A DNA stretch of 64,000 nucleotides, taken from the NCBI GenBank assembly GCA_051313645.2, contig JBNRSN020000014.1, positions 122,264,001-122,328,000 on the forward strand, in the 5' to 3' direction. The DNA comes from Centroscyllium fabricii. Taxonomy: Eukaryota. The notes beneath the pieces are model-generated. The model searched no databases. It was not told where the DNA came from and was given only the letters and a program-made list of their open reading frames with translations. Both the position numbers and the translations under genes were made by a program. This document shows positions 126 to 35,260 of the stretch, piece by piece; position 1 is the first letter of the stretch, and every line of letters begins with the position of its first letter.

Positions 126-227
126 ATGCAAGAAGTCACACAACACCAGATTATAGTCCAACGGTTTTATTTTAAATCACAAGCTTTCGGAGCTTCTGCT
201 CCTTCCTCAGGTGAAAAAGAGACTGAC
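126..227 (-). mobile_element. Penelope-like element terminal (pLTR-like) fragment with minimal hammerhead ribozyme (177-214)
   Basis: Minus strand reads TCAC-CTGAGGA-A-GGAGC-AGAA-GCTCC-GAAA-GCTT-GTGA followed by AATAAA. Near-identical to repeats at 10.1, 14.8 and 35.2 kb. Confidence 0.7.
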
Positions 228-3200
228 ATTATCTATATTATATTTATAATTCTCTCTTTCCCTCTCCCGAATATGCTGAGGGGGTGCAAGCACGCGGTCC
301 CTGTTTTAATTCAGATCGATTGTGTAGGTCCTGGACGGGTGACAAATAGATGGGTTTAAAAAAAAGCCAGGCCCTGACATAATTTACTGTGGTCAGTCCG
401 GGGAGATGTATGACCACATTGCACCTCTGAACTGGAGCTTTGCAATGCAAATATCCGGGGAAATTAACTTATCTGAATCAATGAGCGCACACACACACAC
501 GGAGAAAATATTACCTTTACCTTGGCAAATATAAACGGTGCAAAGTAGACATTATCGATTGCAACCCAAGGTTACTGAATAGATAATCAGAGACACCCCT
601 CCCCTCTCTCTCTCACACACACACATATTCACAATCGCGTTGTATCTTGGTGCAAAGTTCATGTAGATTTTGCTTTCGTGAACTCGGCTTACACTCAACA
701 CAAAAGCGCATTTTCAGAAATAAAGGATAAAGTGGTCGGTCACAAAAATTATGGTTGCACTTCAAAAAGGTGAGTGGAAGTTGTGGCAGTTGAAATTCGG
801 AATCCAGGACCGACTGAGCAGGAGGACACCTCTCGCTGCATGTGTGTCCAGTGCAGATCCCCATTCAAAGCCTGTCGCTAGAATGCCTGTTACAGAGCCT
901 CACAGATTCCCCTCCACAGCAGATTACAGTTAGACATTATCAAAGGCTGCGCTGATTGACACATGGAGACCTTAAGCAGCACACCAAGGACGTGAGGTTC
1001 TTTGAAATATCCTTTCAACTTTGAAAGTCTCACCACATCCATTTTCGTATTTTTAGTTTTAATACAACGTTCATTGCAGTGACAGATTGCCTCCAATGCA
1101 GCAACGTCTGTAGTTGTTCCCACGCGACTGGTTTTTTTTTTTAAAAAAAGGAATTATCATTCAAGCACAAACTAAATGAAGGTGTCTTTAATTTTTGGTT
1201 ATATAAACGCGCTTGAATAGACGGACGAGGAGAATGCTACTTTTTTTTTCCACAGAATGCGACTTTTAACAGGGGGAATGTAATAGCTGACAGCCAACGA
1301 CAGCCTGCTCCCGAAAATAAAACCTACACAGCAGTTTTTAACTTGTTCCTCAAAACCGCCACTTCGACAAAATACTGACCTCGAGAAAAACGCGGGCGAG
1401 ATTTTAAAAGGCATTTTTTTCTCTCCAGAAAACAAATGGCTCGAGAGAGAGAGAGAAAAAATACCATTTCAGACCCCGCCCATCAGCCAAACCCGTGCCC
1501 GTTGTTAAAATTCTGCTCGAAATATGGCCCTCGCCCCATCAATGAAATGGACGCCTGGTATGCAATGAACCGACTGACTCCCATGAAATGTCTTCCATGA
1601 TGTTTTATAGCCGGCATCACCTCCTCGAGTCACATCAAGCAACCACAATATATTGGATTTGAGTTCAGCTCCTTATGGGCAGTATCCTCGGAGTCATTGG
1701 CTCTGTTTACACGAGGCTTTTCGAAGTGACATGGCTATATCACTTTAATAGAAGATTTTAGCTCCATATTAATTCATCCTTTTGTTTATTTATATTGGCT
1801 TTGCCTGGCTGGCGCCAAGGACACTGACTGACTTTGGTCTAGTTTGAAAGTCACTTTTTTTTGTTAAAGGGAAAATAGCCGTGCGTAGTATTTAATGTTT
1901 ATATTGCATCCGAATTTGATACACAATTTGTCAAAGTGTAGATGTTTTCTATTTCAAAACGTTTAATCTCCGGTTTAAAGCTGCAGCGTCCCTTTTCCAT
2001 CTGCAGTCTCATTGCTTTCACATACATTCAGAAATCAATCAACTAACTAATGATCTATACACGGGCTGTCAGTAACTACACTGCTGTGGTACAATGTAAC
2101 TACATCTCAAAACGTTCCAGATGAAATAATAACAGAAACTCAAAAGCAAAAAGAACCCCATACCAACTCCTTTTTTTGTGTGGATTTTTAATACACATTT
2201 TGTAGGATCTCCGTGCAAAGCTCCCGATGATAGCTCCCCCGCTAACTATGAATGAAAGCCTGTCAATGACATAGTTGATTCAAAAGAACTAGTTTGGCGG
2301 TGCAAAATGTACAGCTTGCACCTCCCCCCCCCCCCCCCCACTAAGAAATCGAAGGTTTAAACATTTTTTCATGTTAGAACCAGGACGTCCCGTCTTCAAC
2401 ACGATCAGAAAATGTCCATTTGAGGCCTTTGGGAGCAGAAAGCTATTTGTCTGAAATCCAATGTCCTCGGTTTCTCCCTCCCTCTGAGTTCAGCTTTTGA
2501 AGGGGGGGGGGGGGGCTCTCCAGGACAAAGACGGTTGGCGAGGGTGGGGAGAGAGGGAGGGTGGGGAGAGAGTCCCTTTCATTTCATCTACAACTAGTGC
2601 TTGAGTCCCAGATAAGCGCTCAGCGAAGCCTCTGCATCCCCCCTCCTCTCGCCGCCAATGTAATTATTCTAAAGGTTGAAGAACTGGAGAATGAGGGGCC
2701 CTCGCACTCGCTGTCTGAACATCTCTTCCAAATATTGATCCACTGGCGATAATCCTCTAAACAGATTTTTTTTAAAGGTGGGGGGGGGGGAGTCACCGAG
2801 TTTCGACTATCGGCCCAACCTGTTTTTCCAGCACTTTCCATCGCAGCTCAATCTTACGGTTATCTCAAATCTTTGCCAAGCAACGTCTTTGAATTTGCAT
2901 GCATGGCGGTTTATTTCGGTGGGGGGGAGGGGGGGTGCTTGCGCTTTCATTAAAAAAAAGTCTATTTAAAAGCGAAAGCTATTTGTGGGATGTTTACGGT
3001 GGAGAAATGGAATGCATTGTGTAAACTGGGAGAAGGGTTGAGAGTTGGGGGGGGGGGGGGGGGGTTCCTGCAATCTCCGCAGATCTTTCTAACTCCAGCT
3101 CCTTGCCACGTGTTATTAATGTCTGCCAGGGAAAACAGGGAACGCATTTGCCAGCAAACTGTAACTCGCCATCGAAGGCTTGTCACGTCAGCAATTCTAT

Positions 3201-4199
3201 TTACCGTGGCTTCGTTTTGCAAATATATATATATATATATTTTAAAGAAAGCAAATAAAAAAAATAGCCTTCAACTCAAGGGCGAACTCCCAACTAAAGC
3301 GTGGCAGTGGAAGCCATCCAGCCCAGTAGATACAGTGCGGTAACCTTGCAGGCTACAGTGTGCCCTTCATTGCCCAATTCCGCAAACATGGCTCCCGAAC
3401 CATCGAGCAAATATTTATATATATATATTAAAAAGATGAAATCACACGGCTACAGTTCGATGTCATCGTGACGCACTTAAGAGTTCAATTGCAGGATCAT
3501 TTGGATATACGCGGCCGTAATCTCGATCACTGAGCAGAAATATCAAAGTTTTCAACCAAAAAAAAATCCAAATTACAATCGCCCTTTGTCGATTCGAGGC
3601 CGTTAAAACACACACAAAGACGCATGCACATCGACAAGCGCGTTATTATTAACCGGGATGATTTATTGTTACACATACCTAATCACATTACCGCTTCTGT
3701 TGCATCCGAGTGTGTAAAACAATGAGTCACACACTGAACAAAACCAGGCAAAGGGGGGAAAAAACCACACGGCGTGCTAAACGTAACCAATTGTCTTAAA
3801 GATTCCTTGATACACACACACACTGGGAGCTGGCGTTGCATTTAATTACAAGCTGCAATACACTGATTCCCCCCCCTTACATTTTAAAACATAAGCAACG
3901 TTTTTCCATTAGCGGAGAAAGGAAGGGGGGAATAAGTTGGAAGGAAGCTGTCACTCATTACTGCTCCATTGATCACTCACAATCTTCTGCATTCTCTGCC
4001 GCTGCCATCAGTCACTCGGCATTAATTATCCCTCCCCTCCCCCCTCTCTCTCTCCCCCTCTCTCTCTCTCTCTCTCGCTTTCTTTCTCCATCCTGTCGCC
4101 AATTTTTGAGACAAATGCAACGTTGATGAGTCCTCCAGAAGTTGCGTTTCTTTCATTCGGAGACGCGATTGTGCCTGGGAGATATTCAGATGAGCTCTT

Positions 4200-4640
4200 T
4201 CCAAACATTCAGGCGGTTGCTCCCCCGGCGCTGGGGGAGCTCATTACTATTTCAGTCCCTTTCCTTGTCTTGGGGGAACTTGAGGAACTTGAAACCGCCT
4301 GACAGTGTGTAAAAAAAGCATGGCGGGGGCTGGAGCAGACGGGGGAACTTGAAACTCCTCCCGCAAGATTCTGATGACTATTTCCATCGTTCAGGCGGGA
4401 ACGGGGAGCCTGGAAACGGTGCCATTGGCGGTCCTATTGTAATCGCTCAATGCCCTACCAAGGGTCGCCTTGAAACCGCCCCGGACGCTCTAATTGGTTT
4501 TTCAGGGACGTCGCGAGGGGGCAGCTGGCCCCGGGCCAATCAGAGGCGTGTTTATATTGATTGATTGACAGCCGCCCCGGCCAATGGGAGTCTTATTGAC
4601 ACGGGGTGATTGACAGGAGGCAGGCCCCTGGCCAAACAAT
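4200..4640 (+). promoter_or_regulatory. Probable core promoter of the TNRC18-like gene
   Basis: CpG-rich. CCAAT boxes at 4424-4428, 4493-4497, 4536-4540 and 4581-4585. Two TGATTGACAG (PBX-PKNOX/MEIS type) motifs at 4562-4571 and 4607-4616. Repeated CTTGAAAC motif. Confidence 0.7.
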
Positions 4641-4823
4641 GTGTGCTTCATTGCAAAGAGAGAGTTTTGGAAGACTGGCTAGAGTTGAAAGAGGTTTTTT
4701 TTTTGGTATTTTGTTTTCTGTATGGCGCTTCCACAATCTGCGTTCACCTATAGCCTGGACTCTTAAAATAAACCGAGGGGCGAAGAAAAAAATCTACTTA
4801 GCCTGTCTGAAACGTCCATAAAC
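4640..4823 (+). other. TNRC18: Putative non-coding exon 1 (start approximate)
   Basis: Lies just downstream of the promoter motifs and ends at donor AAC|GTGAGT (GT at 4824). The next exon has an acceptor at 6608-6609. Confidence 0.5.
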
Positions 4824-6741: not shown

Positions 6742-6943
6742 ATGGATGGCAGAGATTTCGGGCATCACCGGACTGTTCACGTCCCTTCTCCTCTGCTCAC
6801 CGGGCTGGCCATGGAGGCGCACAGGGTGGGCGCGCCGGCCGGCAGGGTGGCTCCCTCGGCCGGCCACATGAGCTCGGCGCTCGGCTCTCATCTCCCCCCC
6901 GGCAAGTACCTCTCCTCCCCGGTCTCGGTACACGGGCACTCGG
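6742..6943 (+). CDS. TNRC18: First coding exon of TNRC18 (BAH-domain chromatin reader; paralogue BAHCC1)
   Basis: Encodes MDGRDFGHHRTVHVPSPLLTGLAMEAHRVG...LPPGKYLS, resembling the recalled TNRC18 N-terminus (MDGRDFGPQRSVHGPPPPLLSGLAMDSHRVG...LPPGKY). Good Kozak context (ATTATGG). Phase-1 donor G|GTAAGT at 6944. Confidence 0.88.
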
Positions 6944-9900
6944 GTAAGTCTTGCCTTCATCTTCAAGATGCTCGATATGATTTCCAGTAGATTTATTTTA
7001 AAGGCGAATCTGTGTTACATGTGGGGCCAGCTTAGAGTTGTTGGAAATGTGTGTTTTTTAACAAAAAAAACAATGAGTTTTCAAAACCACGAGAGTTTCT
7101 TCAGTGAAAGACAGTCCTTTAATTGAGAGGGGGAGCTGAACTGCGAAAGAGATTGTAAGGATTCTAAAAGTTTGCTTAGAAGTTCTGCAAACTTACTTTT
7201 TTTTACATACAATGAGAGAATTGAGTATGTAATTGTGTTAACAATGAATGCAAATATTCCTCAACAATAATACTTAGGGTCAAGTGTCCATTATCCACAT
7301 CTCATTGACTGCAATCAGATGTTTCTGTGCAGTCTCCCCTCTTTGCAAATGTTAAGCGCATTCGAATAGTTTCTCTTCTAATCTGAGTCGGCCTCACTGC
7401 TTTGTTTTCGTGTGGAGAATCCGTAGTGCAGGCAATTGAAAAAACATCGAGCTGAGGCCCGTTGGCGCGGAGCGTTTTGTTGTTTGCCATTAACCGAGCT
7501 GGTTTGCTTCTCCCAGTATTGAGGTCGGAGAAAAGCGGCGAGAGCTTTAGTTAAAATTGAGCCGTGCCCGTCACAAAACGTTCGAGTTCAGTCCATATCT
7601 GGAGCACCGAAACCGCCCTTTGAAAGGCGCATTTTAGGAAGCAGACAGAGGCTGGCTGTGCAGACTGAGTTAGGGGCCGAGCTTCCAGCTCCTGAGGAAT
7701 GAATGGCTGCTTTCCTTTGGATTTTTTTGTTGTTGGCATCTTACTTATTTTGCGGACGAGAACCGCGTTTCCCTGTTAGCCTGTGTACCTAAAGCGGTGC
7801 TGTTTGGAGGGTTGGTTAGGAAGTGGCATTCGAGCGTTTTATTCCGGTTTGGAGACTGGTTCCCTTCAGTGGCCTTCAATGCGTGCCAGTTCCTTTTTTT
7901 TAAATTGAAAAAGCTCCGAATATCTAGAAATGTGTAGAGCGGTTCGAAGCAGCGAGAGAGAGAGAGAGAGAGAGAGAGAAGAAATGGTTGAGAAATGGCC
8001 AGAGAGAGATTTACAGATAGTCTGAAAGTGGAATTCGCAGCAAGATTCGAGGCGGCCCTCTAAAGCAATTGAGACAGAAAGGAACTTAAAACCGAACTAA
8101 GTTGCAAACAACTATCTTTGGTAAAAGCGAGCGAACATTCCCTACCTAAAGATGTTCTAACGTTGTTCTAATTCCCCCCTAAAAGGGTGTCCTTTTGTAT
8201 GTAAATACACACGCATTGATCACAAATAAACCCAGACAGCAATATTTAGGGCACTTAACGCTTCGGTGGTTGGATATTCTTTGTGAAACAGAGTTTGGGC
8301 GAGGTTTGCAAAGAATGGAAATCCGTGTGTTTTAGAGTTTGTGCCTATTCTCAGTCGACTTATTTATTTTTGAAAGTTCATGCTGATAGTAATAAACCGG
8401 GCACATTCCCCCAAAACACGCAAGGCAGGAACAGGCAGAAATCTTGACATTACAAAGCCAGATAAAAGGTGGGGTTGGGTTGTGGGGGGGGGGGGGGGGG
8501 GGGGCTGGTGGGGGAGCGAGTTAAGGGTGCACGCCAGCTGGTTAAATGAATTGTAAATGTTTCTCGAGGAAGCTGTGCCTCGCTGACTATTTTTCCCTCA
8601 AGCATGCAAATTGTCTGACATTCACACTTATTAGGGTTGATTAGAATTGCGCAGATTGCAAATTCACCTTTGTGTGAAAAAGGACTGGCGGAGCAGGGTT
8701 CAGAAAGCGCTGAACATGACGCTTGTGAAACCACATGCATTTAATGGTATGGGGATATATATATCTGTATAGAAAATGGCAAAATGATTTGTGGGCAGTT
8801 CGAAATCCCCTGAAGTCCAAGGAGCAATGACATAGCCACCTTGAATATGAATCATTGCTCATATTTCTAAGCGCAGTCCTTAATTCATTTCAGCACATTT
8901 ACTAGCCGTTAACTGTTTACATTTTGACCGTGGCTGTTTTTGGGACTGTGTTTATAAGCTGGTACTCTTTTGATGTAATCTTCAATCTTATTGTCAAACG
9001 CAGATGACCTTTTTAAAAAAAAAACGTTTCACTTCCCCCTCTATTATTCCCCATTGGCTCATTGGCAGCGATTTCATGTCGTTATCGGCGATTCCGCCCC
9101 CCCGCCCCCCCCCCTCCACCGTTCTGTGAAAAGTAGAAAGTTTTCGTTTCCCGGCGTAGATTTAAAGTATGTTTCACCGGCTCAGCACAGGTTGACTGCT
9201 GCGTGTGTTCCAATGGAGGAATGGGGCTTCAGTTCAATCCCTGTAGGCAGAGCTGAAACATTTGTTTTTGATTGCTCCCCAGTTTAAAACACATCCCCTC
9301 TCTCTGCATTACAGCCTCAAAAAGTCCTTCAGCTGGCTGTAAAGCGCTTTGGGACGTCTCGAGGTCGTGAACGGCGCTATAGAAATGCAGGTCCTCCTCC
9401 GAGTTCGCAAAACCTCTTGACGGGCTTCTGGCTGGAGACGGGCCGCTTAAAAGGAAAGGCCTTTGAATGCGTTTTCCTGGGGCCCGCTGAGCGGCGAGGC
9501 TGCCCGGCGTACGAGTGATAGCCGAGGAATGAGACTTTGCTTCAAACCCCGTGTGCTCACAGGCAGAGCTGAAACCTTTTCAATTCCCAGTTCCCCTCCT
9601 TGTTCACTAACGCTAAATATTAGAAGGGTTTGCTGGGCAAGTCCTCCTCCAATACTGCAGCTGGTAGTTCAAGTGTTAATATCCAGTGCTATTGTACACA
9701 GTAAATTGTTCCCATTGTCGGAGTGTGTCTGTCTTCCAGTGTTAGAGGACAGGGCACTTTCTGCTAATCTGTATTTTAGTCACACAGTTGAGTAAGATTG
9801 ACTTTAAGTTTTAACTTTAATAATTACTGTGACTAGCAGGTTCCGCTGCCCATGTGTCCCCTTGCATTACCTTAATGGCTTTTTAAATGTTAAATTATGG

Positions 9901-10084
9901 ACAGTGGTTTTAAGTTACGATTAAAGACTTCGACAGGCTTGCAATCGGAAGGTGTGACTGTACATTAACATTGAGAATACTTGGTCGTGTGCCTCTGAGG
10001 TAGCACCAGCTACCGAGGATAGACATCTATGAATCTATGATTAACCACACCAGTTTTGGGGGCGATTCTATGAAAATGCCATAA

Positions 10085-10354
10085 CGTGGAGGTGCCGGTG
10101 TTGGACTGGGGTGGACAAATGCAAGAAGTCACACAACACCAGATTATAGTCCAACGGTTTTATTTTAAATCACAAGCTTTCGGAGCTGCTGCCCCTTCGT
10201 CAGGTGAAAGAGAGAGACTGACTTAAAGAACGCACATATGTGCGTTCTTTAAGTCAGTCTCTCTCTTTCACCTGACGAAGGGGCAGAAGCTCCGAAAGCT
10301 TGTGATTTAAAATAAAACCGTTGGACTATAACCTGGTGTTGTGTGACTTCTTGC
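10085..10354. mobile_element. Palindromic Penelope-like terminal repeat pair with two hammerhead motifs (10170-10207 on -, 10268-10305 on +)
   Basis: 10121-10354 is a near-perfect inverted repeat centred on CATATG (10235-10240). Each arm carries the CTGACGA...GAAA core. Confidence 0.75.
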
Positions 10355-11929
10355 TATTAAAATGCATGCAGGGGTTACCAGTGGAATACTGAAAGTAAGG
10401 CATATTAATTGGAAGAACTGTATGGAGTAAAACAAGGAAGTGTAAAAACCCTATTAATGAGGCTCCATCAAATGTAAGGGCAGAAGTGTTAATGTAGGAA
10501 GATCGAGCAGGTTACTTAGACTGGGTTTGGTAGATGTGTTGCCCAGATAGCAGGGTTGGGTCTTAGAAGCACTGTTACAAATATTCTTGTTTTTAAAGTG
10601 GCATTTTATAAAGTTTATCACTTGGGGAAAGGGCAGCCCAGACATTGCTGGAAACCTTCATGTGATGCTCCACATTCCCAGATCCAAGCCCCGCCAGTGT
10701 CCTTGCAAAGTGCAGCAGGAACGCTATTTTTCGCCACGTCCACTAAACACTCACAAACTGAATCAACATATCGAGAAAGCTTAGCAAAGGGAGCGCGTTT
10801 TAAAAGCCCCCTGTTTAATGATACTGCTCCCTTCCCGGTTTCATTTCGCCGTAATGAAGTCTAGCCATTTTAACAATTAAACACCGGTTCATCTTTTTAA
10901 TTCCCGTGCCCTCTTTACCAGCTCAAATTCTCACCAGTTCTGGACTTAAAAGTTCAACCTGGAATTTAAAAAAAAGCGATGCTTCGATCTTAACGTCGCT
11001 GCGCAGAAAGCTGGAGATGGGTTCATTGTCTTTTGTACATTTGCCTATAATTGGGTGAGAGGGAGGTTTATACAGGGGCCTTTTCCAGGTGTATCATTCG
11101 GCCAAACGAACGTACTTGGAGCCAGGTAAACGCTGCAAAGTTGCTCCTTAAGTTCTGCCCACAAGGGGCTGCCTGACTGCCACGGATTTGAGCGGCCTTT
11201 CTAACCCCCTCCTGGCCAGACCGGGGATTCGATCAGATCAGGGCAGTTTTTGGAGACTTTAACAAGGTCGGGATTTGAAACTGCAGAAAGTAGAGAGAGG
11301 CAGAATGGACTAAAGGCCACGAAACATCAGATAACAGACCAGGAGTTTCAAAAACGGTGTCGCCAAGAAATGACATGATTACGGACACTATCTATCACCT
11401 TATGGGTTGCTCTTATCGGCTTTTTTTTTGTTGCTGCCAGTGCTTGCTTGAACGCCGCGATTGCGCCTGTTTGCTGGGTGATTTATCGGGACACCAGGCA
11501 GCGTGCCGCAGTCTTTGATCGCTGGCTTCAACTTAGCACTCACTGACTGATCCACTGCCCGAAAGGGAAAAAAAAAGTTGAATCCGCCGAGGACTAGGTA
11601 TGATAAATGAGTCAGATGGTTCGGAATTACAGACTTACCGCTTCCAACAATGGAAGTGATTTGGCGCAGGTTTAACCCTATAATGCGAGGTCTCAAGCTG
11701 GGTGCATTTTAATTGAGGTCTCGCCGATATGTTTCATTCCCTAGTCCCATCTTTGCTGTAGTCAGGGTTCAGACTCTTGTTCTCAGGGCTTCTGAACTCC
11801 AAACGTCAACGTTTCCGCCGAACAGGCATTTGAAGATGAATATTTTCAGAACTGTTGGACTGTTGGAGCCCCGAATATGGTGTCGAACCCTCGGGGACCC
11901 CGGAACAGAGATGCTTTTCAGGGGAAGCG

Positions 11930-12146: not shown

Positions 12147-14769
12147 GTGTCGAAAGAGTTAACATTTGAAGGGGGGTGTAATGGCCAGCCCAGTTGAAAG
12201 GACGAGGACGAGATACCGGTCACCCAACAGTCACAGACTGAACTCCAGCACCCAGTCACGGCTGGGAGGGCAATGTTCAGCTAAGGATTAAAAAAAACAG
12301 TTTTAAGCTCTGATGCCAAAAGAGATCTGAAACTGCAGACACCAAACAGGAGCCTGGCCGCTCCCTGCCAATTCAATCCCAGTGTCCTGTTCCACAATAT
12401 CCGTTTCGCAACCGTCTTAACGTCTACTTTCCACGTCAGTCTTCACACACACACAAAGTTCAAGATTTTTTTTTTTACAAGTTCCATGTTTACATTTCTT
12501 TTATTTCCCTTCCACTGGAGGTTTAGTCTAGACTTTTCCTCACCCGGTTTATACACATTCAATAAGTAGATGTAATCATACTTTGAACGGGCCCTGGTTT
12601 ATTAATTCCCCTCCACCACCACAGGCTCATTCCGTCTCTCACTGAAGGGTAAAGGGCGAGGAATGTTGATTTATGCCGTGTCACCCATTCTCCAGGCATT
12701 CCCCCGCCTTGGCTTGGACCCTTTGGCAGACTAGAATCCCCCCCCACCCCACTCCCCACTCCCCTCCCAAAATAAAATCTGGTAAAAAGGCTTCCTTGTG
12801 TCGGGGAAGGGGGCGGTGCATAGCTCATTTTAAATAATCTCCGGTTGGACTGCAACCTCAAAAAAGCATTACGTGGCGCTTCAAAATGTCCAGTTTTAAT
12901 TTCTGGCACACCGATTGCGGCAGGTTCCCCCCCCCCCCCCCGCAGCGCATTAAAGTTGTGGGGTAATTTTTAACTGGAGCTTTCAAAAAAATCAAAAAAA
13001 ATCCCAGTACCGTTTTCAACCATTGAAAACAATTGGGAATTTGCCATATTTCAACCGGAGTGCCCCTGTCAATTTCGCGTCAGTGTCACCCTGTATATTT
13101 ACATCGACCAATCGGCGCGCTGGGCTGATTTGTACGGTGGAGTAAGCAAATAGGTCAGCGGCCTTCCACTTTCAGCCAGAGTGTCAGGGAAATCTAACAA
13201 TGCAAATTACATTTATAGATCCGCCTTAGGGGGTCCTTTTAATGACAAAGGCCGTACATTTTATCATTTTTTTTAAATATAAAAAAATAATCGAGGAACC
13301 AAGGTGACGGGACTAGACCCCAGTGCAGGATCCCATCAAGTTTATACATAAAGGAACAAGGTGAACCAGGAAGCTCCCCCTGATGGGGTGACTCCAAGTT
13401 TGGCGTTTTAAAAGGGTGAAGATTATAGTAGGATGTAAAAGCTGACGGACTAAGGAGATACATGTCGTTTTGAGATCCTTGTGGGTTCTTGAGCGAACGA
13501 GCATCTCAATGTTTAGTTTATTCCACTTAAAACGTTTCGAAGTCGAATTGCCTCTTTCCAAATGGTCTTTGTGCATTTTACAAATGGGAGTTGTTGTGAT
13601 CCCGGAACGTGCTGCCTGCAGGGGCGGTGGAATCAGCTTCAACAGTAACTTTCAAAGGGGAATGGGATGAATGCTTGAAGGGGCAACATTCGCAGGAGCT
13701 GTGGGGGAAAGAGCCAGGGTGGAGGGGGGGGGGGTGCAGTGGGAGAGCGCTTTCCAAGAGCCGGCACAGGCGAGACGGGCCGAATGGCCTCCTGCGTTGT
13801 ATCATTCCAGCAAAGCAGGACATTTCTCCGTCTGTACAATACAGTGAAGCCCCGGGGGAGAGCCCCGGGCGATACTATCCGTTACTGGAAAATATCGAGA
13901 GTGGAAATGTGTTTAGCTGGTGTGCATTTTGCTGTTGTAGATTTCCAAATGCAGTTTTTTTTGGCAGGCTAACCCCCTCCACCCCCGCATCCCCCTCCAA
14001 ATAAAGAGCATGTTTAGATTTAACTGCCCCCCCCCCCCCCCACCAAAAAAAAAGAAATGGAGGCAATTATTGCTGGTAATTTCTCAAGCAGAGCATTGTG
14101 GCTAGCAGCGATTAGCAGGAACTTGCTTGTGTCGTACAGTGCAGCACTTAATAGCAGCTGCACTGTGGTGAGTGGGTGGAGAGTTAGCTTCAGATGGTTT
14201 TTGCCCATTAGTTCGGAAGCATTAGCAAAATTGCTGTTGTTTTGGAAGAGTTTCTATCGAGTGAGCCTGTGGAACAACTTATTGTCCGCGCAACGTTCCT
14301 AGATAAATAATTGACTAGGAATGATAAGAGTAAAATAGCACTTTGTTTCTCTCTCCCCCCCCCCACCCTTTTTTTTGTATGTCGGGCATAATGTCCTGAA
14401 GCAACGATTGAATGCTCCTGGAGAATACTCGGGTTTTGTTACAGAACACTGCAAAACCAATGTCGTTCTGTGTCTACAAGCAGCGGCCAAGTCGTCAGTT
14501 CCAAGGGCGCTTTGTCTTGAAGTTTACAGGAATCCCCCTTTCCACGGATCCTGTAGCTCATGTCAGACACTAGATTCAGAAGCATTCATCCATAGACGCT
14601 GAGGCCACCAGCGCAATGGAAGGAACAAGATATTCAAACCAGGGGGGGGGGGGGGGGGGGAGATTGTTTGTGCTGTCGAGCCTCTTGTGTCGGCCCCCCT
14701 CCACTTGCCTTGCCGGCTGGGCTGCAAGCTCTGGAATTCTGCCCCTAAAACTCTCCCTTTCCTCCTGTG

Positions 14770-15025
14770 AGAAGTCACGCAACAGCAGGTTATAGTCCAA
14801 CAGCTTTATTAGAAATCACAAGCTTTCGGAGCGTTGCTCCTTCGTCAGGTGAAGTGTAGAGATACACACACATAGGCTCAGCATATGTAAATCTCTTCAC
14901 TTCACCTGACGAAGGGGCAGCGCTCCGAAAGCTTGTGATTTCAAATAAAACTGTTGGACTATAACCTGCTGTTGTGTGACTTGTTACATTTGTCCACCCC
15001 AGTCCAACACCGGCACCTCCACATC
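14770..15025. mobile_element. Inverted Penelope-like terminal repeat pair with two hammerhead motifs (14816-14852 on -, 14902-14938 on +)
   Basis: Inverted arms around a short spacer. Same 3' extension (TTGTCCACCCCAGTCCAACACCGGCACCTCCAC) as the 10.1 kb copy. Confidence 0.75.
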
Positions 15026-18000
15026 ATTTCCTCCTGTAAGTCGCTCCTTAAAATCTCCCTCTTTGACCCAGATTTTGGTCACCTGCCCTAATTTATCCTT
15101 ATGTGGCTCGGGGGGCAAATTTGGACTTATTAGCGCCCTGGGAGGACGTGTTTGCTACCGCATTAAAGGCGAGTTCTTGTCCTGTAGAGTTCCTGTTGGT
15201 CTGAGTTCAGAAACAGACTCAGTCCCACCCGCACCCACCCTCAGGACAGACAGTGCAGTACTTGAAACTGATGAGCGTGCATTTCACCGCTGCGCTGTTG
15301 CGAGTTGTGTCTGGATAAGCAAGTTTTGGTGATGTTTTTACCCGTTATGACAAAGTGCCAGTGGGAGAGAAATTGAATGTCAAGTCTTGTTAAGTATTCA
15401 TCCACATTTACAGCGGAGTTTCTATGGCAACGCATTATGGTGTACTTCCTAAAAGACCCTCAGCAGCTGAGTGTTAATGGGGGGGAAAACTGGAAGATCT
15501 GTGTAAATAACCAAGCCTTGGTATGTGGGGCCGAATGAATTAGTAGCAAGGTGCAGTACAATTCGCCCCAGTCTCTGTATACCAGCGAGGCTACCTCGAA
15601 TGAAGGAAGATGTGTGTGTTGGGTACAAATGGATGGATGGTATGAAGAGGGACCTATAGTTATCGGAGCGAAAGTGCTTTCAATGGGGTTCTGTATAGAA
15701 ATGAGTGGGTGTTGTTGGCTCGGGCCAGTCGTGAATTGAGGTTTCATGCACTATTTTGGATTCTAGTGAATGTCACTATTCAGATACTTTGTTTATCTAC
15801 TCCGACCTGTAGTAAGAACCACCGGCTTTTTTTTTTGGAAATATTAAAAAAAAAACACAATGACTCCTCTATCTTCCCAAAGGCGACTTTGTAGTGCTTT
15901 TTTCTCTCTCTCTCCATGGGTCACACTGCTGGTCAACCGCCGACTGTGGGCTGGCCTCATTCACTGTGAAGCCGCTCGGAACGCCAGACATTTCCTCTGC
16001 GTTTGGGGTTGGCGGTAACCGGGGTGCCTCCCGGCCGGGTTAGCTGGCAGAGTGTGAAGCTCGTCAACATCTGCATGCTTTGGAGGGGAGGGAGGGCGGT
16101 GGGGGGTGGGGGTGCGGTTGCTGGGACCGGGAATGTTTGAGGTACAGAATAAACCCAACACTGACGGGAAGGGCTTGGTGGCATTCTGCAATTTTTTTGG
16201 GACCTGCCGATCCAAACTTGGCAATCTTTGCTGTACTTCGCCAGATATTAATAATCCCTTTCATTGACTTAAAAGGGAATGTTGTGCTTTAGTGAAACGT
16301 GGAGCGCCGGGTTTGCTGTGCTGTGCTGTAAGCTAACACTGCCCGCCTGTAATGCAGACAGTAAAGTATATTAAAGATGTGTTTTCTCAGTGTTTCAGTG
16401 GTTATGGTGCCGTTTACATCGGGTACCCACATTAATTAAAGCAATGCACACTAACTATCTGAATTGTCATTGATAGTCTTTGCAGGCTTGATGCTGAAAA
16501 TTGCTCGGTGTAGTATTTACCATGGCTCTGACTTTGTGTGTCTTGATCTTAACAATCCCACCGGCAATAGGTTGTGCTTATAATCTTGGACCAAATACTT
16601 CCCTTTCGCCCGTTTTAAGACGTTCCCGCGTCTTTATTCCTGCTGAATTCACCCCTTAAGACCCACATCCCTTCTGTTAACTAACATCTTCGCGCTTTTA
16701 ACAGGACAGTTATTTACCCGATTGTAATGTTCTTGAATGTGATCCATCCTTACTGCGGCGTATCGCGCTGTAGATGGAGCGGGTTGTGTGTGAGCATTTC
16801 GGAGCACGCCGGCAATTTTTTTTTAAAAAACGACCGAAGTCCATGGCAGTCAAATAGGAGATGCTGTGATTTTAATCCTGAGAAAGGACATTTCTGGAGC
16901 ATTGTGTACAATCGCCTCCCTCCACCCGCACAGCCACTGACACCCACTGCAGACCCGAGAGCCCGAATGACACTTTCCCTTGAAGCCTCGGTAAAGAAAG
17001 GATTTCGCCACTTGCTCAACGACACAGCGCGTTCTGTGAAATGCTATGCTTTCTTACGTTAGAAAACACACGGGTGGCTTTGGGTTAGCAATCTGAGAAA
17101 TCCAACAAGACCATTTCGAAGAGCCGATTGTCCTGAATTTTTTGGGTAGGTGTTTATATTTGTTCTCACCAAGCCAGACAGGTGTGTGTGTGTCCCGTGT
17201 GTGTGTCCCGTGTGTTTGGGGTTAAAAGTAGTGGAAGCTGCCAGATTGCAGCTGTAAAATATTTATTGTTTTTAACTAACTCTCTGGGAAAGGAGAGCCG
17301 AGAACACAAACTGCAGCTGTGCGGATCTACTGCCTATATTGCAATTGTTAATTGTACTTGTTGAAGGCTAAGCGAGGCACATTCTCCCACAACACTGCTG
17401 CAATGCAGCATGCAAAAGTCAGAACTCTCAATCCTGGTCGACCAGCCGAAAACTGCCCATCTCCCAAACGTAACTCAGATTAATTCAGTTTTCATTGATT
17501 TGTTTTTTTTGTTAAGGTGAGATTTTGATGATCAGTTTGACCCTTCGGTTTTACCAGCTCTTTGGGATAAGGAAGCAAAAAATATCCCCCCCCCCCCCCC
17601 CCCCACCTCCAACCACCACAAAAAAAACACCGACCCACTAATGTGCAGATACTGCACTCCACTATCCAGAGAGCACCTTGAGCCTCCTGCTCTGCCTGGC
17701 TGCTCAAACAGTCCTTAAGACGGTGGAAGATGTCGCTTTTTGTTAAGCTCATGCCAAAAAAAGTAATGTTCTAAACACATATTCGCAGTGGTGTGTTAAT
17801 AGCAAATGGGTTATAGGATAACACTGTTGTAGCACCGATGGGAGATGGAAGCATTTCTTTTGACAGCCCTGTGTAGATGTAATGAAGTCTGGTTATATAT
17901 TTAAGAGCATTTTGCCAACTGTATAATTTTATAATTTTATGTACATACAATAATAATGGCGAGGGGGAGTAAACTGGGTCTTTAAAGTCTCTCTCGGAGT

Positions 18001-24760: not shown

Positions 24761-24789
24761 ATTCGTCCTTCCGTATCTTGGCCAAGTGA

Positions 24790-25192: not shown

Positions 25193-26950
25193 CAGGTACA
25201 CAACCCTTTATCCGAAAACCTCGGGACCGGGCGGGTCTCGGTTTTCAGATAATTTTTGTTTTTAGAGTTGGCCCAGTGCGCATGCGCAGATCGCATGCGC
25301 ATTGCTGTGTTTGCGGCCCAGTTCGCAGTCGGGAACGGCATATCTGCTGTTTGGAATGGGAGATCTGTCACTGGCGAAGGCAGCTGTCCCTACCTGCTTC
25401 AAGACCGCCACCATCATCCCTGTGCCCAAGAAAACGGCCGTGACGTGCCTGAACGACTACCGCCCTGCCGCACTTACACCCATAATCATGAAGTGTTTCG
25501 AGCGGCTGGTCCTGGCCCACATCAAAGCCAGCGTCCCCGCCGCCCTGGACAAATACCAGTTCGCCTATCGAGGAAACAGATCAATGGAAGATGCTATCAC
25601 TACGGCTCTTCACTCTGCACTAAACCACCTGGATAGCAAAGATACGTATAACAGAATGCTGTTTATTGACTACAGCTCAGCATTCAACACCATCGTCCCC
25701 AGTAAGTTGTCCCCAGCAACACCTCACCCTCGGCCTGAACACCTCCCTCTGCAACTGGACCCTGGACTTCCTAACGAACAGACCACAGTCTGTGAAGTTA
25801 GGCAACCTCACCTTCCCCCCCCATTCCCTGAGCACGGGGGCCCCACAAGGCTGTGTGCTGAGCCCCCTCCTCTACTCCCTCTTCACTCACGACTGTGCGG
25901 CTGTCCATGTCTCCAACATGATCATCAAGTTTGCGGACGACACCACGGTGGTTGGCCAGATCACCAACAACGATGAGTCAGCCTACAGGGATGAGAGCCA
26001 GCGCCTTGTAGGATGGTGTGCCGATAACAACCTGGCACTGAACACCAAGAAAACTAAGGAGATCATTGTGGACTTCCGGAGGACTGAAAGCAGAAGACAC
26101 CCCCCCATCTTCATCCAAGGGGCTGAGGTGGAAAGGGTGTCCAGCTTCAAGTTCCTCGGGGTCCACATCTCGGAAGACCTCTCCTGGTCACTAAACACCT
26201 CCTCTCTGGTTAAGAAGGCCCAACAGCGCCTGTACTTCCTAAGGAAGCTGAAAAAAGCCAAGCTGTCATCTGGCATCCTCTCCAACTTCTACCGCTGCAC
26301 AATCGAAAGCATACTGACAAGTTGCATCACAGTCTGGTATGGAAATTGCACCAGCTCGAAGGCCCTGCAGCGGGTAGTCAAAACTGCCCAACGCATCACC
26401 GGCACCCAGCTACTGTCAATTGAAAGCATCTACCTCAAACGCTGCCTACGGAGGTCTCTGAACATTATTAAAGACCCCACACACCCCAGCCACAGTCTGT
26501 TCGCCCCCCTGCCCTCCGGGAGACGCAACAGATCAATTCGCACCCGCACGACTAGATTTAAGGACAGCTTCTTCCCCAGGGCTGTCAGCCTCCTGAACTC
26601 TAAAAATAAACTCCGGTACCTGCACACCTGATAATGTACTTTACCGTATGCAATTGCATGTAAATTATTTGCACTACTCTCGGGAGCGGCGAGTCTTCGT
26701 CTCGTTGTATTGTACTAGTACTCTGCAATGACAATAAAACTTGAATTGAATTGAATTGAGATCGGCCGTTTTGTTTCCTCAGCACGGCATCAACAGCACG
26801 ACATCAAGGTAAAAACATATTTTTTCTGCTGTAGCAGGTCACTTCCTTCAATTTATTTAAGAAAAAAAATGGTTATTTTGGCGCAACTCGGGATTTCGGT
26901 TTTTGGAGCTTTTCGGTTTTTGGAGTTGCGGATAAGGGGTTGTGTACCTG
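25193..26950. mobile_element. Tc1/mariner-pogo type MITE interrupted by a Rex1 LINE
   Basis: TIR CAGGTACACAACCC.TTATCCG at both ends, flanked by TA (25191-25192, 26951-26952). Confidence 0.85.
25366..26759 (+). mobile_element. 5'-truncated Rex1/Babar non-LTR retrotransposon (RT domain, one frameshift near 25715)
   Basis: Motifs [43 protein letters not shown] and FKFLG. Tail CAATGACAATAAA(TTGAA)n. Possible TSD GAGATC. Confidence 0.88.
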
Positions 26951-30659: not shown

Positions 30660-30880
30660 ATAATGACAACTTGCGTTTATATAGCGCCTTTAACATCGTA
30701 AAATGTTCCAAGGCACAGGAGCGATTATCAGACAAAAATTGACACCGAGCCACGTAAGTAGATATTAGGACAGGGAAGGAGGTAGGTTTCAAGGAGCGTC
30801 CTAAAGGAGGAAAGTGAGGTAGAGATGTTTAGGGAGGAAATTCTGGAGCTTAGGGCACGGCTGCCAATGGTGGGGTGGGC
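30660..30880 (-). mobile_element. L2 LINE 3' end remnant (similar pieces at ~9333-9395, 35530-36050, 39505-39752, 41190-42300, 46860-47010)
   Basis: CAACTTGCGTTTATATAGCGCCTTTAAC...GACACCGAGCCAC...GGAGCTTAGGGC recurs across the window. Confidence 0.65.
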
Positions 30881-31139
30881 GAAGGAAATCGCGCATTTCA
30901 GCAAAGTCACCGATCGACCAATGCAATTCTAAAATATAAAGTTAAACTTTAAATATCATTAGTTCAACTATTTTGTAACTAGGTTTAAATTATAATGGAT
31001 TATTTTTTCATTTTAATATCAATGACTCGATAAGTTCCTCCGCCTGTTTTCCAATCCACCTTAAAGGTGCGGTTTGGCTGTAATTTCTCACAATCCATCC
31101 TCCTCCAGCACCTCACTTGAGTGGCCATCCTTCACTTTG

Positions 31140-31474
31140 GGCCACGGTGGCATAGTGATTAGCACTGCTGCCTCACAGCACTGGAGACCCGGGTTCAAAT
31201 CCGGCCTCGGGTGACTATCTGTGTGGAGTTTGCACATTCTCCCCGTGTCTGCGTGGGTTTCCTCCGGGTGCTCCGGTTTCCTCCCACAGTCCAAAGATGT
31301 GCGGGTTAGGTTGATTGGCCAGGATAAATTCACCCTTAGTGTTAGGGGGATTGAATATTTGGGGTTACGGGGATAGGGTGGGATATGTGTCAGTGCAGGC
31401 TCGATAGGGATCGAGGGATATGGGGACAAGGCAGGGACAGGGTACTGTGTTTGGATGATCAGCTATGATCTCAT
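31140..31474 (+). mobile_element. V-SINE 5' part (remainder at 34349-34427), split by a CR1 LINE
   Basis: Full head and V-domain. The tail breaks at GATCTCAT and resumes as TGAATGGCGGAGCAGG after the LINE. Confidence 0.8.
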
Positions 31475-34348
31475 CGGAACAAGGTAGATGAATTATCTGT
31501 AGAAATAGAGGCAAACAAATATGATTTGGTTGCGATTACAGAAACATGGCTGCAGGGTGGACAAGGCTGGGAACTTAACATACCAGGGTATACAATATTT
31601 AGGAAGGATAGGCAAAAAAGAAAGGGAGGTGGGGTGGCATTACTGGTGAGGGAGGGGATTAACTCAATTGAAAGGACTGATATTAAATCTGATGATGCGG
31701 AATCTGTATGGGTAGAACTGAGGAATAGCAAGGGGCGAAAAATGTTGCTGGGAGTGGTATATAGACCGCCAAATAGTAATATGGAGGTTGGGGAAGGCAT
31801 AAAAAGGGAAATTAAAGAAGCGTGCAATAAGGGCACAGCTGTCATCATGGGTGACTTTAATTTACATATAGATTGGACTAGCCAGATTAGTAACAACACG
31901 ATGGAGGAGGAATTTCTGGAGTGTATACGAGATGGTTTCCTGGACCAATATGTCGAGGAACCAACTCGGGATCAGGCCATCTTAGACTGGGTACTGTGCA
32001 ATGAGAAGGGATTGATTGGCAATCTTGTTGTACGAGGCCCATTGGGGCGGAGCGATCATAATATGATCGAATTCTCACTCAGAATGGAGAGGGAAGAAAT
32101 TGACTCGGAGACTAAGGTCCTAAATTTAAGAAAAGGGAACTATGATGGTATGAGACGAAAGTTGGGTACAATTGATTGCGGGGTGTCGCTCAGGGGGCTG
32201 ACGGTGGATCAACAATGGCAGGCATTCAAAGATCGAATGGAAGAAGCGCAGAGCTTGTTTATACCAGTTTGGAATAAAAATAAACCAAAAAAGGTGACTC
32301 AACCGTGGATAACAAGGGAAATTAGGGATAACATAAAAACCAAAGAAAGGGCGTATCAACTGGCCAAAAAAAGCAGCAAACCTGAAGATTGGGAACAATT
32401 CAGGATACAGCAAAGGAGGACAAAGGGATTAATTAAGAAGGGGAAAATAGATTACGAAAGAAGGCTTGCGGCAAACATAAAAACTGACTGCAAAACCTTT
32501 TACAGATACATTAAAAGGAAGAGACTGGTGAAATCCAGAGTTGGGCCCCTGCAGTCCAAATCAGGAGATTATATAATGGGGAACAAGGAAATGGCGGACC
32601 AATTAAATTCATATTTTGGTTCTGTCTTCACAGAGGAGGACACAAATAGCCTCCCGGAGATGTCGGGAAACATAGGGACTAATGAGAGGGAGGAACTGAA
32701 AGAAATCAATATCTCTAAGGATATGGTGTCCGGGAAATTGAAAGGATTAAAGGCCGACAAATCCCCAGGGCCTGATAAGCTGCATCCTAGGGTGCTTAAG
32801 GAAGTGGCCCTGGAGATATCAGATGCTTTGAGGATCATTTTCCAGAACTCAATAGACTCTGGAATGGTGCCCAGGGATTGGAGGGTAGCTAATGTTACCT
32901 CACTATTCAAAAAGGGGGGTAGAGAGAAGGCGGGGAATTATAGACCGGTAAGCCTTACATCGGTTGTGGGCAAAATGCTAGAGTCCATTATTAAGGACGT
33001 AATAGCAGATCACTTGACTAAGAGTGACGGGATCGGACACAGTCAACATGGATTTATAAAAGGTAAATCGTGCTTGACTAATCTATTGGAATTCTTCGAG
33101 GATGTAACCGATAAAATAGATAGGGGAGAGCCAGTAGATGTGGTTTATCTGGACTTCCAGAAAGCCTTTGACAAGGTCCCTCATAGGAGATTGGCAGGCA
33201 AAATTAAGGCTCATGGGATTGGGGGCAAGGTATTGGCGTGGATAGAGAACTGGTTGGCAGATAGAAAACAGAGAGTTGGGATAAACGGGTCGTTTTCTGA
33301 TTGGCGGGCAGTGACTAGTGGGGTACCACAGGGGTCGGTACTGGGACCCCAGCTGTTCACAATATATATTAATGACCTGGATGAGGGAATTGGGTGTAAC
33401 ATCTCCAAATTCGCAGATGACACCTAAGCTTGGAGGGGGAGTATGCTCTGAGGAGGATGTCGGGAAGCTCCAGAGTGACCTGGACAGATTGGGGGATTGG
33501 GCGAACACATGGCAAATGCACTATAATGTGGATAAATGTGAGGTTATCCACTTTGGTAGCAAAAACAGAAAGGCAGAGTATTATTTGAACGGCAATAGAT
33601 TGGGAGATGGGGAAGTGCAAAGAGATCTGGGTGTTCTTGTGCACCAGTCACTGAAGGTGAGCATGCAGGTGCAGCAGGCAGTTAAAAAGGCAAATGGTAT
33701 GTTGGCCTTTATATCAAGAGGGTTTGAGTATAGGAATAGGGATGTCTTGCTGCAGCTGTACAGGGTCTTGGTGAGGCCACACCTTGAGTATTGTGTGCAG
33801 TTTTGGTCGCCGCATCTGAGGAAGGATGTTCTTGCCATGGAGGGAGTACAGCGACGATTCACCAGGCTGATACCTGGGATGGCAGGAATGACTTATGAGG
33901 AGAGATTGTGTAGTCTGGGCTTATACTCGCTGGAGTTTAGAAGATTAAGAGGGGATCTCATCGAGACTTATAAAATTCTGTCAGGCGTGGACAGGTTAGA
34001 TGCAGAAAGGATGTTTCCGATGGCCGGGGAGTCGAGAACCAGGGGGCATAGTCTAAGGATAAGGGGTAAGCCTTGTAGGACTGAGATGAGGAGGAAATTC
34101 TTCACACAGAGAGTGGTGAACCTGTGGAATTCCTTGCCACAGAGGGCGGTGGAGGCCGGTTCATTGAATATATTCAAGAGGGAACTAGATATATTTCTTC
34201 AGGCTAAAGGGATTAAGGGATATGGGGAGAAGGCAGGGACTGGGTACTGAACGTGTAAGATCAGCCATGATCTCGTTGAATGGCGGAGCAGGCTCGAAGG
34301 GCCGAATGGCCTACTCCTGCTCCTATCTTCTATGATTCTATGATTCTA
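31475..34348 (+). mobile_element. 5'-truncated CR1-clade LINE (HER1-like): APE endonuclease + RT ORF2 with a single +1 frameshift near 33425
   Basis: Motifs [45 protein letters not shown], then KLGG..RDLGV..RPHLEYCVQFW to the stop at 34250. 3' UTR ends in (GATTCTAT)n. Confidence 0.93.
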
Positions 34349-34630
34349 TGAATGGCGGAGCAGGCTCGAAGGGCCGAATGGCCTACTCCTGCTCCTATCT
34401 TCTATGTCTATGTCTATGTCTATGTCCACAGGGGCCGTGCTAACCCCATCCCGACCTCACCTGCTGTTCACGACCGCAGTGCTTCCAGCAGGGATCACGG
34501 GAGCCCTTGTAGATTTTCCCCCCTCCGAAAGGTGCTGAGGCTAACTGTAGCACACCTGCCGTAACCCAGCGGAGACCACCTGGCTCAGCACAGATTCTAC
34601 TTCAACCCCAGCTCCTCCGCTTTACTGAAT

Positions 34631-35003
34631 AAACACAGAAACACAGAAGATAGGAGCAGGAGTGGGCCATTCGGCCCTTCGAGCCTGCTCTGCCATTTTG
34701 ATGAGATCATGGCTGATCATCCAAACCCAGCACCCCCCTCCTACCCTCTCCCCATATCCCCCGACACCCCCAACTCTAAGAACTATATCTCACACACATA
34801 CTCATGGGCAATTTTTAGTATCTCCAATTCACCTAACCTGCATGTCTTTGGGTGGTGGGTGGAAACCGGAGTACCCGGAGGAAACCCACACGAACACGGG
34901 GAGAACATGCAAACTCCACGCAGAGAGGTCCCGGGCCAAGCAGGATTCGAACCCAGGAGCTCCTTATTGCGAGGCAGCAGTGCTAACCACTGCGCCACCG
35001 TGT
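34631..35003 (-). mobile_element. V-SINE subfamily B
   Basis: Highly similar to 19265-19642. Confidence 0.8.
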
Positions 35004-35142
35004 CTTCCCTGAGTCTTCACGAAGCCCTAGTCTCAGTTCTCAGAATTATTCCAGGGCTTAAATTCCGCATGCTCTTGTCATCTTTGTAAAACGAGGCCAC
35101 ATATTTTGAATGTGGAAGAGATCGGATTTCTCCCTTCCTCCG

Positions 35143-35260
35143 ATATGTGTGTTCTTTAAGTCAGTCTCTCTGTCCACCTGAGGAAGGAGCAGCGCTCCGA
35201 AAGCTTGTGATTTAAAATAAAACCGTTGGACTATAATCTGGTGTTGTGTGACTTCTTACA
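35143..35260 (+). mobile_element. Penelope-like terminal fragment with hammerhead motif (35174-35210)
   Basis: CAC-CTGAGGA-A-GGAGC-AGC-GCTCC-GAAA-GCTT-GTG. Corresponds to one arm of the 10.1 kb palindrome. Confidence 0.72.

Follow-up and report, generated by a model that had tools for sequence, protein, structure and literature searches.

The six hammerhead motifs found in the 64,000-nucleotide stretch of DNA analysed here (the window) very probably represent the minimal-hammerhead part of the terminal repeat (pLTR) of a very abundant Penelope-like retrotransposon (PLE). Four short insertions carry them, within the first coding intron of TNRC18 or next to it, and are likely to be inert passengers there.

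Hammerhead motifs and insertions in the window

An earlier note had reported six motifs, and a check of the window finds all of them at the positions and on the strands that it gave:

177..214, minus strand: minimal hammerhead motif 1, from pattern match and fold, predicted cut between 181 and 180
10170..10207, minus strand: minimal hammerhead motif 2, predicted cut between 10174 and 10173
10268..10305, plus strand, sense to TNRC18: minimal hammerhead motif 3, predicted cut between 10301 and 10302
14816..14852, minus strand: minimal hammerhead motif 4, predicted cut between 14820 and 14819
14902..14938, plus strand, sense to TNRC18: minimal hammerhead motif 5, predicted cut between 14934 and 14935
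35174..35210, plus strand, sense to TNRC18: minimal hammerhead motif 6, predicted cut between 35206 and 35207

The pattern search of the window gave these 6 matches as against 0 in 100 dinucleotide shuffles. Every core consists of CUGANGA, one extra nucleotide, a helix II with G10.1-C11.1, and GAAA. AGCU followed by U17 is present in 6/6 motifs, together with an NUH triplet, and there is no intramolecular helix III. As had been observed, the six differ from one another only at N7, which is C or G, in a stem II loop of 3-4 nt, at a single A-U/G-U pair and at the outer base of stem I; the outer pair of motif 6 is C-A. Stems I and II are both present in the minimum-energy fold of 6/6 monomers (37-38 nt), with a helix I of 3-4 bp. 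The proposal of a palindromic stem III formed by dimerisation stands in so far as a partner is needed, but the palindrome is the 4-nt AGCU (A15.1-G-C-U16.1) and not AAGCUU because A14 and U17 are unpaired core positions in hammerhead numbering. For 6/6 motifs another dimer is predicted to be more stable than the double hammerhead, the best of these alternatives by 5-11 kcal/mol. An Rfam scan of the window at E<=10 placed no hammerhead family among its 14 matches; the miRNA matches in that scan are merely the fold-back hairpins of the insertions.

The extra A had been taken to mark a variant hammerhead. It does not, as the motif is the published minimal-hammerhead consensus (Cervera and De la Pena 2014, PMC4209133), CUGANGAH, in which a nucleotide between A9 and G10.1 is listed as a conserved feature of metazoan PLE hammerheads. 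The CUU triplet was correctly read and appears in the same paper, so neither can be considered a novelty. Features shared with the minimal hammerheads of PLE pLTRs described there include the G10.1-C11.1 pair, GAAA, the palindromic 15.2/16.2 pair, NUH, a 4-bp helix I, a U-rich 5' flank and an AU-rich 3' flank, and the occurrence mainly of single truncated copies plus close opposite-strand pairs. In the supplementary alignment G-C-U-U also follows GAAA in a turtle motif, and a lamprey motif has the same UCAC/GUGA helix I. The shark family differs in its helix II of 5 bp and in copy number, which exceeds 128,000 where the highest vertebrate counts given in that paper are about 4,000 and 9,000; cartilaginous fish are absent among the rows examined of its Fig. 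S3 and Table S1. This agreement, and the full-length elements described below, bear out the reading as a minimal type I hammerhead in Penelope-like termini. The six are genuine copies of an RNA motif that is known from Penelope-type elements and for which self-cutting is predicted.

The six copies do not correspond to six events. There are four insertions, two fold-back pairs and two solos, all 5'-truncated and each with its own target duplication of 11-13 bp:

124..227, minus strand: insertion 1, antisense solo pLTR stub, tail absent, start about 45 nt before the predicted cut; target duplication 113-125 and 237-249 (12/13 alike)
10080..10353, both strands: insertion 2, head-to-head fold-back pair of pLTR stubs, tail of about 35 nt on the minus arm, both arms starting about 65 nt before the cut; target duplication 10068-10079 and 10354-10365 (11/12 alike); predicted hairpin -221 kcal/mol
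14769..15026, both strands: insertion 3, head-to-head fold-back pair from a subfamily that looks older, tail on the plus arm; target duplication (11 bp) 14758-14768 and 15027-15037; predicted hairpin -172 kcal/mol
35111..35261, plus strand: insertion 4, solo pLTR stub, tail absent, start about 97 nt before the cut; target duplication (12 bp) 35099-35110 and 35258-35269

The stubs end either with the pLTR itself or with the tail, and target duplications flank them. Since these duplications are intact and the window copies are 92-98% identical to other copies, the insertions are young. Inverted 5'-truncated copies, one-sided tails of 30-40 bp and target duplications have all been described for PLEs.

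The parent element

Exact matches to the motif number 128,881 across the 7.2-Gb shark-like genome, compared with 0 for a reversed control, and the adjoining pLTR segment has 147,723 matches. Strict motif matches occur on average once per 56 kb. The earlier note expected a linked RT/endonuclease ORF elsewhere in the genome, and full-length copies with the order pLTR, 890-aa RT/GIY-YIG-type ORF, pLTR do exist. One such locus, L056, comprises an inverted pLTR, a pLTR, the 890-aa ORF and a further pLTR. Open frames of 907-937 codons are present in 9 of the 20 loci examined, and six loci (L056, L057, L059, L060, L061 and L064) have the motif in both pLTRs. In full-length elements the motif of the 5' pLTR precedes the ATG by 91 nt, and that of the 3' pLTR follows the stop by 465 nt.

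The L056 protein matches Pfam RVT_1 with 36.8 bits (cut-off 29.6) and carries DKG at 295, YIDD at 531 and a CX4CxxC linker between RT and endonuclease (residues 752-760). A Pfam scan gave no GIY-YIG match of its own for this protein; its C-terminus, which has Y..YIG and C-C-H-H motifs, aligns with protein P0024 across the Pfam GIY-YIG domain of the latter (39% for the alignment overall). Indirectly, these similarities point to a C-terminal GIY-YIG endonuclease with CCHH. Pfam searches with ORF fragments and a PDB sequence search with the full ORF returned nothing useful, and the nearest named proteins are from sharks (89%, 84% and 80%). As expected of EN+ Penelope-like elements there are direct and inverted pLTRs, a one-sided tail and a short target duplication. 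Neptune-type EN+ PLEs (PMC8557442, PMC3846280) share these features and also the single ORF with RT followed by a C-terminal GIY-YIG-type domain, a CX2-5CxxC linker, CCHH and head-to-head palindromic junctions. The shark element may be assigned to the Neptune type, an assignment made by motifs alone, with the linker also described in Nematis and Naiad.

Are the short copies products of truncation or an independently spreading, non-autonomous element of retrozyme or SINE type? In a sample of 136 copies taken with a downstream anchor, 75 have a fold-back partner and 71 a tail, and only 16/136 have an ORF end within 900 nt upstream, so that short copies far outnumber those linked to an ORF. Animal retrozymes have been traced to PLE pLTRs in a 2026 preprint, which would fit independent spread. 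The same preprint defines non-LTR retrozymes by tandem units with a complete hammerhead in each, whereas the window copies are solos or head-to-head pairs, and we reject the retrozyme designation. The sampled copies share no fixed start, their 5' ends being spread across upwards of 200 nt, and each window copy matches part of the full-length pLTR and has its own target duplication. A separate non-autonomous element is accordingly improbable, and truncation of the Penelope-like parent is the reading we adopt.

The TNRC18 intron

The gene context had been correctly recognized. TNRC18 was identified from a large downstream exon and the BAH exon, a homolog search with the first exon alone having found none, and the window contains the start of its coding sequence:

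6742..6943, plus strand: TNRC18, first coding exon; 91% match to residues 1-68 of the whale-shark TNRC18 protein P0121

A GT donor follows directly at 6944. The next exon lies 132 kb downstream, beyond the window, giving a first coding intron of 132 kb, and five of the motifs are therefore intronic (three sense, two antisense); the sixth lies 6.5 kb upstream of the ATG exon.

Three sense intronic copies with intact cores might be domesticated ribozymes acting on the TNRC18 pre-mRNA, by cutting or tuning it. Other introns are known to hold hammerheads that derive from retroelements, and HH9 (RECK) and HH10 of amniotes (PMC6155905, PMC3088659) are, like the sense copies here, type I, intronic and in host-gene sense. 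Those are single, conserved, canonical and active as monomers, whereas the shark copies are minimal and belong to a huge, young repeat family. The TNRC18 transcript offers no canonical, monomer-competent fold of the HH9/HH10 kind, helix III being absent. Motifs 3 and 5 are predicted to be fully paired with their inverted arms in long hairpins; for motif 3 every one of the 11 CUGANGA and GAAA positions has an unpaired probability of 0.0 in the predicted pre-mRNA fold. Motif 6, the sole sense copy in the window outside a fold-back, is without a stem III or a free partner. Over the 275-kb coding span there are 7 sense and 7 antisense pLTRs, with an intact core in 6 and 5, respectively, hence no strand bias, and one strict match per 56 kb is what the genome shows on average. 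Given also the youth of the insertions, we regard domestication as barely credible, and the suggested relevance of the sense copies to the pre-mRNA lacks support. The insertions are likely inert passengers, although we caution that this judgement is based on equilibrium folding and a small count (14 pLTRs, about eight events). We reject the notion of a six-ribozyme system around TNRC18; as a feature of that gene the motifs carry little weight, being passenger stubs of a commonplace repeat.

Constraint, 5' ends and self-cutting

A mechanism can be proposed by analogy with the Poseidon element PAc of Anolis carolinensis (Frangieh et al. 2024, PMC11167929), which belongs to a different clade from the shark element. 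Both have a hammerhead near the pLTR-ORF junction, AT-rich targets, a tail explained by two RT start sites and uncut RNA as the main template. The ORF of PAc has its start within the ribozyme and includes the tail, whereas in the shark element the ATG follows the cut by 91 nt and marks the end of the tail. The shark protein would nick AT-rich DNA, and reverse transcription would begin at one of two internal sites, producing a tail or none. Copying would run toward the 5' end and usually halt early or fold back, leaving solos and head-to-head pairs. In the element's own RNA two motifs may pair via AGCU, probably with help from the protein, and cut after CUU with low efficiency. Most RNA would be copied uncut, with a small share of copies, around half a percent, being run-offs from cut RNA.

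In 78 copies that span the motif, common variants affect N7, the wobble pair, the stem II loop, the flanks and the outermost base of stem I (its pair being U-A in just 40/78). None of the 11 core positions has a variant at 10% or more, and G15.2 and C16.2 are invariant (78/78). Off-consensus bases make up 26/858 (3.0%) in the core and 27/858 (3.1%) in the flank, compared with 150/390 for N7, wobble and loop together. The core is thus fixed between subfamilies and after insertion decays like the flank. The earlier note would have held a core decaying as freely as the loop against the ribozyme; this test was mis-set, because inserted copies are neutral and constraint shows between subfamilies. 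No stem I or II pair is changed on both sides in the 78 copies, only one-sided A-U/G-U changes being seen, so covariation is absent within this young family. The 50 nt downstream are about equally conserved, and conservation by itself is therefore not specific to catalysis.

Does the motif cut in vivo? It could be kept as a folded signal, such as a protein-binding site, promoter or splice-linked element, which is not, or no longer, catalytic. The 5' start lies upstream of position -4 in 128/136 sampled copies, so most derive from uncut RNA. A CUUGA core, with an extra base in the CUGA box, is present in 5,598 copies belonging to at least three loop subfamilies, some loci with long open frames, and suggests that an intact core is unnecessary for spread. 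PLE clades without hammerheads are described as thriving. In the published account of the anole element (PMC11167929), insertion in vitro was unaffected by mutating the ribozyme, and RNA-seq revealed no ends at the cut. The same account reports that the anole motif does cut, though only when protein is present, and the shark motif varies exactly where a hammerhead tolerates change (N7, loop and wobble). The locally raised number of starts at the cut site and the re-start loci, both described next, also count against a non-catalytic signal, which is in our view rather unlikely but a serious contender.

The new observations are modest clues. Genomic copies starting exactly at the predicted cut are about 1.7-fold more frequent than at the four neighbouring positions. 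Five of eight short re-start loci begin at that site, a count made after setting aside 51 of 63 short re-start matches explained by TGTGA microhomology, mostly in three minisatellite arrays. The CUUGA-core copies are the third clue. Among the 136 sampled copies there is no peak at the cut: 2/136 start at -4..+2, compared with 1.0-1.5 per nt in the stretch from -45 to -4. The sample is too small and coarse to reveal an excess of 0.5%, but it lends none any support. AT-rich filler at junctions was found in 6/23 cases at the cut site and 3/35 at two control positions, which is not significant (p = 0.13). Tentatively, and with rather less than even confidence, we suggest that these starts are a fossil record of ribozyme cutting in the germ line. 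On this reading the RT would sometimes run off the new 5' end (G1.1) that the cut creates. After adding bases without a template it would resume, much as telomerase does, either about 30 nt further back or on a different, uncut molecule.

Minimal PLE hammerheads have low activity in vitro. In a young family of more than 128,000 copies, junction statistics can address cutting in living cells. The CUUGA lineage provides a natural control, as the footprint should be absent there if that core is dead. If the suggestion is true, the germ-line footprint would be in vivo evidence of cleavage by a minimal PLE hammerhead.

Six motifs and four insertions in and beside TNRC18

Direct reading of the window confirms the places and strands of the six minimal hammerhead motifs described in the earlier note, and their pattern occurs in none of 100 shuffles. 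All six run on into a common downstream segment of 50-90 nt and are therefore pieces of one repeat, the terminal repeat (pLTR) of a Penelope-like element (PLE). Their count as separate copies does not stand, since they belong to four insertions, two solo stubs (short, 5'-truncated pLTRs) and two fold-back pairs.

Insertions in the window, from repeat alignment and target duplication
124-227, -, insertion 1, solo stub
10080-10353, both strands, insertion 2, fold-back pair
14769-15026, both strands, insertion 3, fold-back pair
35111-35261, +, insertion 4, solo stub

All four are flanked by target duplications of 11-13 bp, of which two match perfectly and the others have a single mismatch each. 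Only one arm of either pair carries the extra tail of about 35 nt. A pyrimidine-rich tract lies 5' of the motif (10250-10267, 14885-14901 and 35155-35173), present in every subfamily with the sequence itself not shared, and looks like a 3' splice-site tract. In Drosophila Penelope an intron ends at helix I of the hammerhead. A 5S rRNA-like piece at 35804-35917 (-) scores 32.4 bits, below the Rfam gathering score of 38, and is likely a pseudogene or the head of a 5S-derived SINE.

The proposed TNRC18 context is borne out. A 132-kb intron, which holds five of the six motifs, separates the exon at 6742-6943 (TNRC18 residues 1-68) from the next one. A large downstream exon matches whale-shark TNRC18 at 83%, with TNRC18 making up nearly all named top matches, and a BAH exon lies 270 kb downstream on the same strand. 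For the two sense motifs that sit in fold-back pairs, folding predicts complete pairing (probability unpaired 0.0) with the antisense arm, which is transcribed immediately beforehand. The third sense intronic motif stands alone in insertion 4; its outer stem I pair is C-A, and the window offers it no free partner in sense orientation. Across the 275-kb coding span there are seven sense and seven antisense pLTRs (intact core in six and five) and no sign of selection on strand in this small count of 14. The six strict matches in the window exceed the genome mean of about one per 56 kb, a raw count representing only four events.

LINE-like endonuclease/RT frames at 31469-34247 (+) and 25266-26628 (+), which we take to be CR1-like and Rex-like, are ordinary repeats of the TNRC18 intron. 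Short-period tandem repeat takes up 10 kb or more of the same intron (locus L044, G000:C446:122348001-122358000). A 437-codon open frame at L002:1701-3011 (-) resembles a Harbinger/PIF-type transposase.

The element family

Across the 7.2-Gb genome, exact matches number 128,881 for the strict motif (reversed control 0) and 147,723 for the adjoining pLTR segment. The linked RT/endonuclease frame sought elsewhere in the genome was found in L056, a full-length element, ordered as inverted pLTR with tail, pLTR, 890-aa ORF and pLTR. The predicted cut falls 91 nt 5' of the ATG and again 465 nt 3' of the stop, and the tail runs up to the ATG. A first look gave 104,763 candidates genome-wide for an ORF upstream of one motif, 111 of which were scored, at 96-100% identity throughout; open frames of 907-937 codons occur in 9 of the 20 loci fetched for long frames.

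The L056 protein combines an RT domain and DKG with a CX4CxxC linker and a C-C-H-H motif. Its C-terminus is alignable with the GIY-YIG domain of a related protein; a Pfam search gave no GIY-YIG match of its own. Among named proteins the closest are those of the sharks Heptranchias (89%), Scyliorhinus (84%) and Mustelus (80%). By the protein-motif definitions of Neptune-type elements alone, as given in the accessible part of Craig et al. 2021 (PMC8557442), the element is classed as Neptune-type.

Minisatellite arrays, whose 41-bp unit derives from the pLTR segment immediately 3' of the ribozyme, are spread across megabases (L297-L303, L306; contigs C922, C1221, C1267). In L056:6100-6760, contigs of two other organisms (runs X1-X3) cover the ribozyme, the stretch that follows it and the end of the ORF but hardly the 3' UTR between ORF end and motif; conservation among relatives is thus higher in the motif region.

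Possible genomic footprint at the predicted cut

Positions are counted from the predicted cut after CUU, +1 being G1.1. In a sample of 136 copies picked by a downstream anchor, 128 start upstream of -4, so most templates were uncut RNA, and no peak appears at the cut. Genome-wide counts, confined to copies with all four upstream bases unlike the element, give 497 starts at -8, 370 at -1, 607 at +1, 386 at +2, 348 at +3 and 308 at +4. Corrected for this filter, +1 takes 1.3% of copies, its four neighbours 0.66-0.83% and -8 1.06%; the excess at +1, a local peak, corresponds to roughly half a percent of the family's copies. As a caution, microhomology and deletion classes differ from one start position to the next (internal deletions at 2 of 29 loci for +1), and the frequency of AT-rich filler at +1 (6/23) is not significantly above that at controls (3/35, p = 0.13). 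Among the 136 copies, starts run at 1.0-1.5 per nt across the ribozyme, from -45 to -4, roughly threefold the density between -120 and -45 (0.4-0.5 per nt). RT stalling at the fold may account for this, or else poorer references for upstream parts that have diverged.

A search for short re-starts, not conditioned on start position, gave 63 matches, 51 of them set aside as TGTGA microhomology. The other 12 lie at eight loci; five restart exactly at G1.1, the rest at -3, -3 and -6. Four of the five have 7-8 A-rich filler bases and one has fillers of 0 and 1. The binomial p for one of 14 positions is about 1e-4, a post hoc figure because the idea itself arose from three of these loci. At four of the five, an intact motif is read through in the upstream unit, as though copying had ended on uncut RNA. 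These results suggest that run-off from cut RNA may be a minor copying route. Short re-starts exactly at the predicted cut, mostly after A-rich filler, are seen at L277, L278, L280, L282 and L305, and L282 has as many as five successive units.

Constraint and comparison with published hammerheads

Conservation was assessed in 78 motif-spanning copies of the 136-copy sample, chosen by downstream anchor and nearness to the window, window copies excluded. No position of the 11-nt core carries a variant at 10% or more; variants that common are found at N7, the wobble of stem II, the loop, the outer base of stem I and the flanks. The core, which the earlier note had weighed against the loop, holds 26/858 off-consensus bases compared with 150/390 at N7, wobble and loop; the flank at +41 to +51 holds 27/858 (p = 1.0), and the 50 nt downstream are conserved to a similar degree as the motif. 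The covariation check found no double compensatory change in the stems of the 78 copies. We read the source elements as being under hammerhead-like constraint, with inserted copies decaying neutrally. The missing double changes, the conserved downstream stretch and the CUUGA lineage described next all speak against pressing this reading too far.

Copies whose CUGA box has gained a base to read CUUGA form a lineage of 5,598 exact matches genome-wide, distributed over three or more subfamilies by stem II loop; they make up 3 of the 78 sampled copies. Examples are L050, L067, L072, L113 and L144, some adjoining long open frames. Insertions near C3 impair cleavage of a saltern hammerhead, according to the accessible part of that report (PMC3088659), and the lineage may therefore have spread with a weak core. 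CUUGA would be either a tolerated core variant or one that spread without an active ribozyme.

The accessible portions of Cervera and De la Pena 2014 (PMC4209133) give the consensus U-rich, NNN CUGANGAH G..C GAAAN palindrome NU H NNN, AU-rich, in which the nucleotide between 9 and 10.1 is a conserved feature. In their turtle row the GAAA column, which the PDF text sets apart, is followed by a terminal G-C-U-U, and U stands at 17 in many of the rows. The extra A and the CUU triplet, put forward earlier as variant traits, are thus both on record there and neither is new. Single truncated copies and close opposite-strand pairs are also described there. The window ribozyme is, by its motif, of this published kind. 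Its dimer helix III is AGCU, 4 bp, and for all six motifs alternative dimers are predicted to be more stable than the designed double-hammerhead, the best of them by 5-11 kcal/mol. This fits the low activity measured by Cervera and De la Pena and the protein-assisted cleavage reported for the anole Poseidon element PAc in the accessible text of Frangieh et al. 2024 (PMC11167929).

Anatomy, copy number, location in both pLTRs, target duplications, tail, truncation spread and host gene are established here. By analogy with the accessible anole work (PMC11167929), the element would nick AT-rich DNA, its RT would start internally, and copying would stop early or fold back. Cleavage after CUU, judged from motif and literature, would be weak, partner-dependent and probably protein-dependent; a small share of copies may be run-off from cut RNA.

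A literature search with most subscription journals outside its coverage gave no paper on shark Penelope hammerheads (the sole match uses 'shark' for shape), and its titles and abstract openings held nothing on genomic copies starting at a hammerhead cut site. A 2026 preprint on tandem retrozymes, in the part accessible, includes one chondrichthyan. The family adds a shark member to the published minimal PLE hammerheads.
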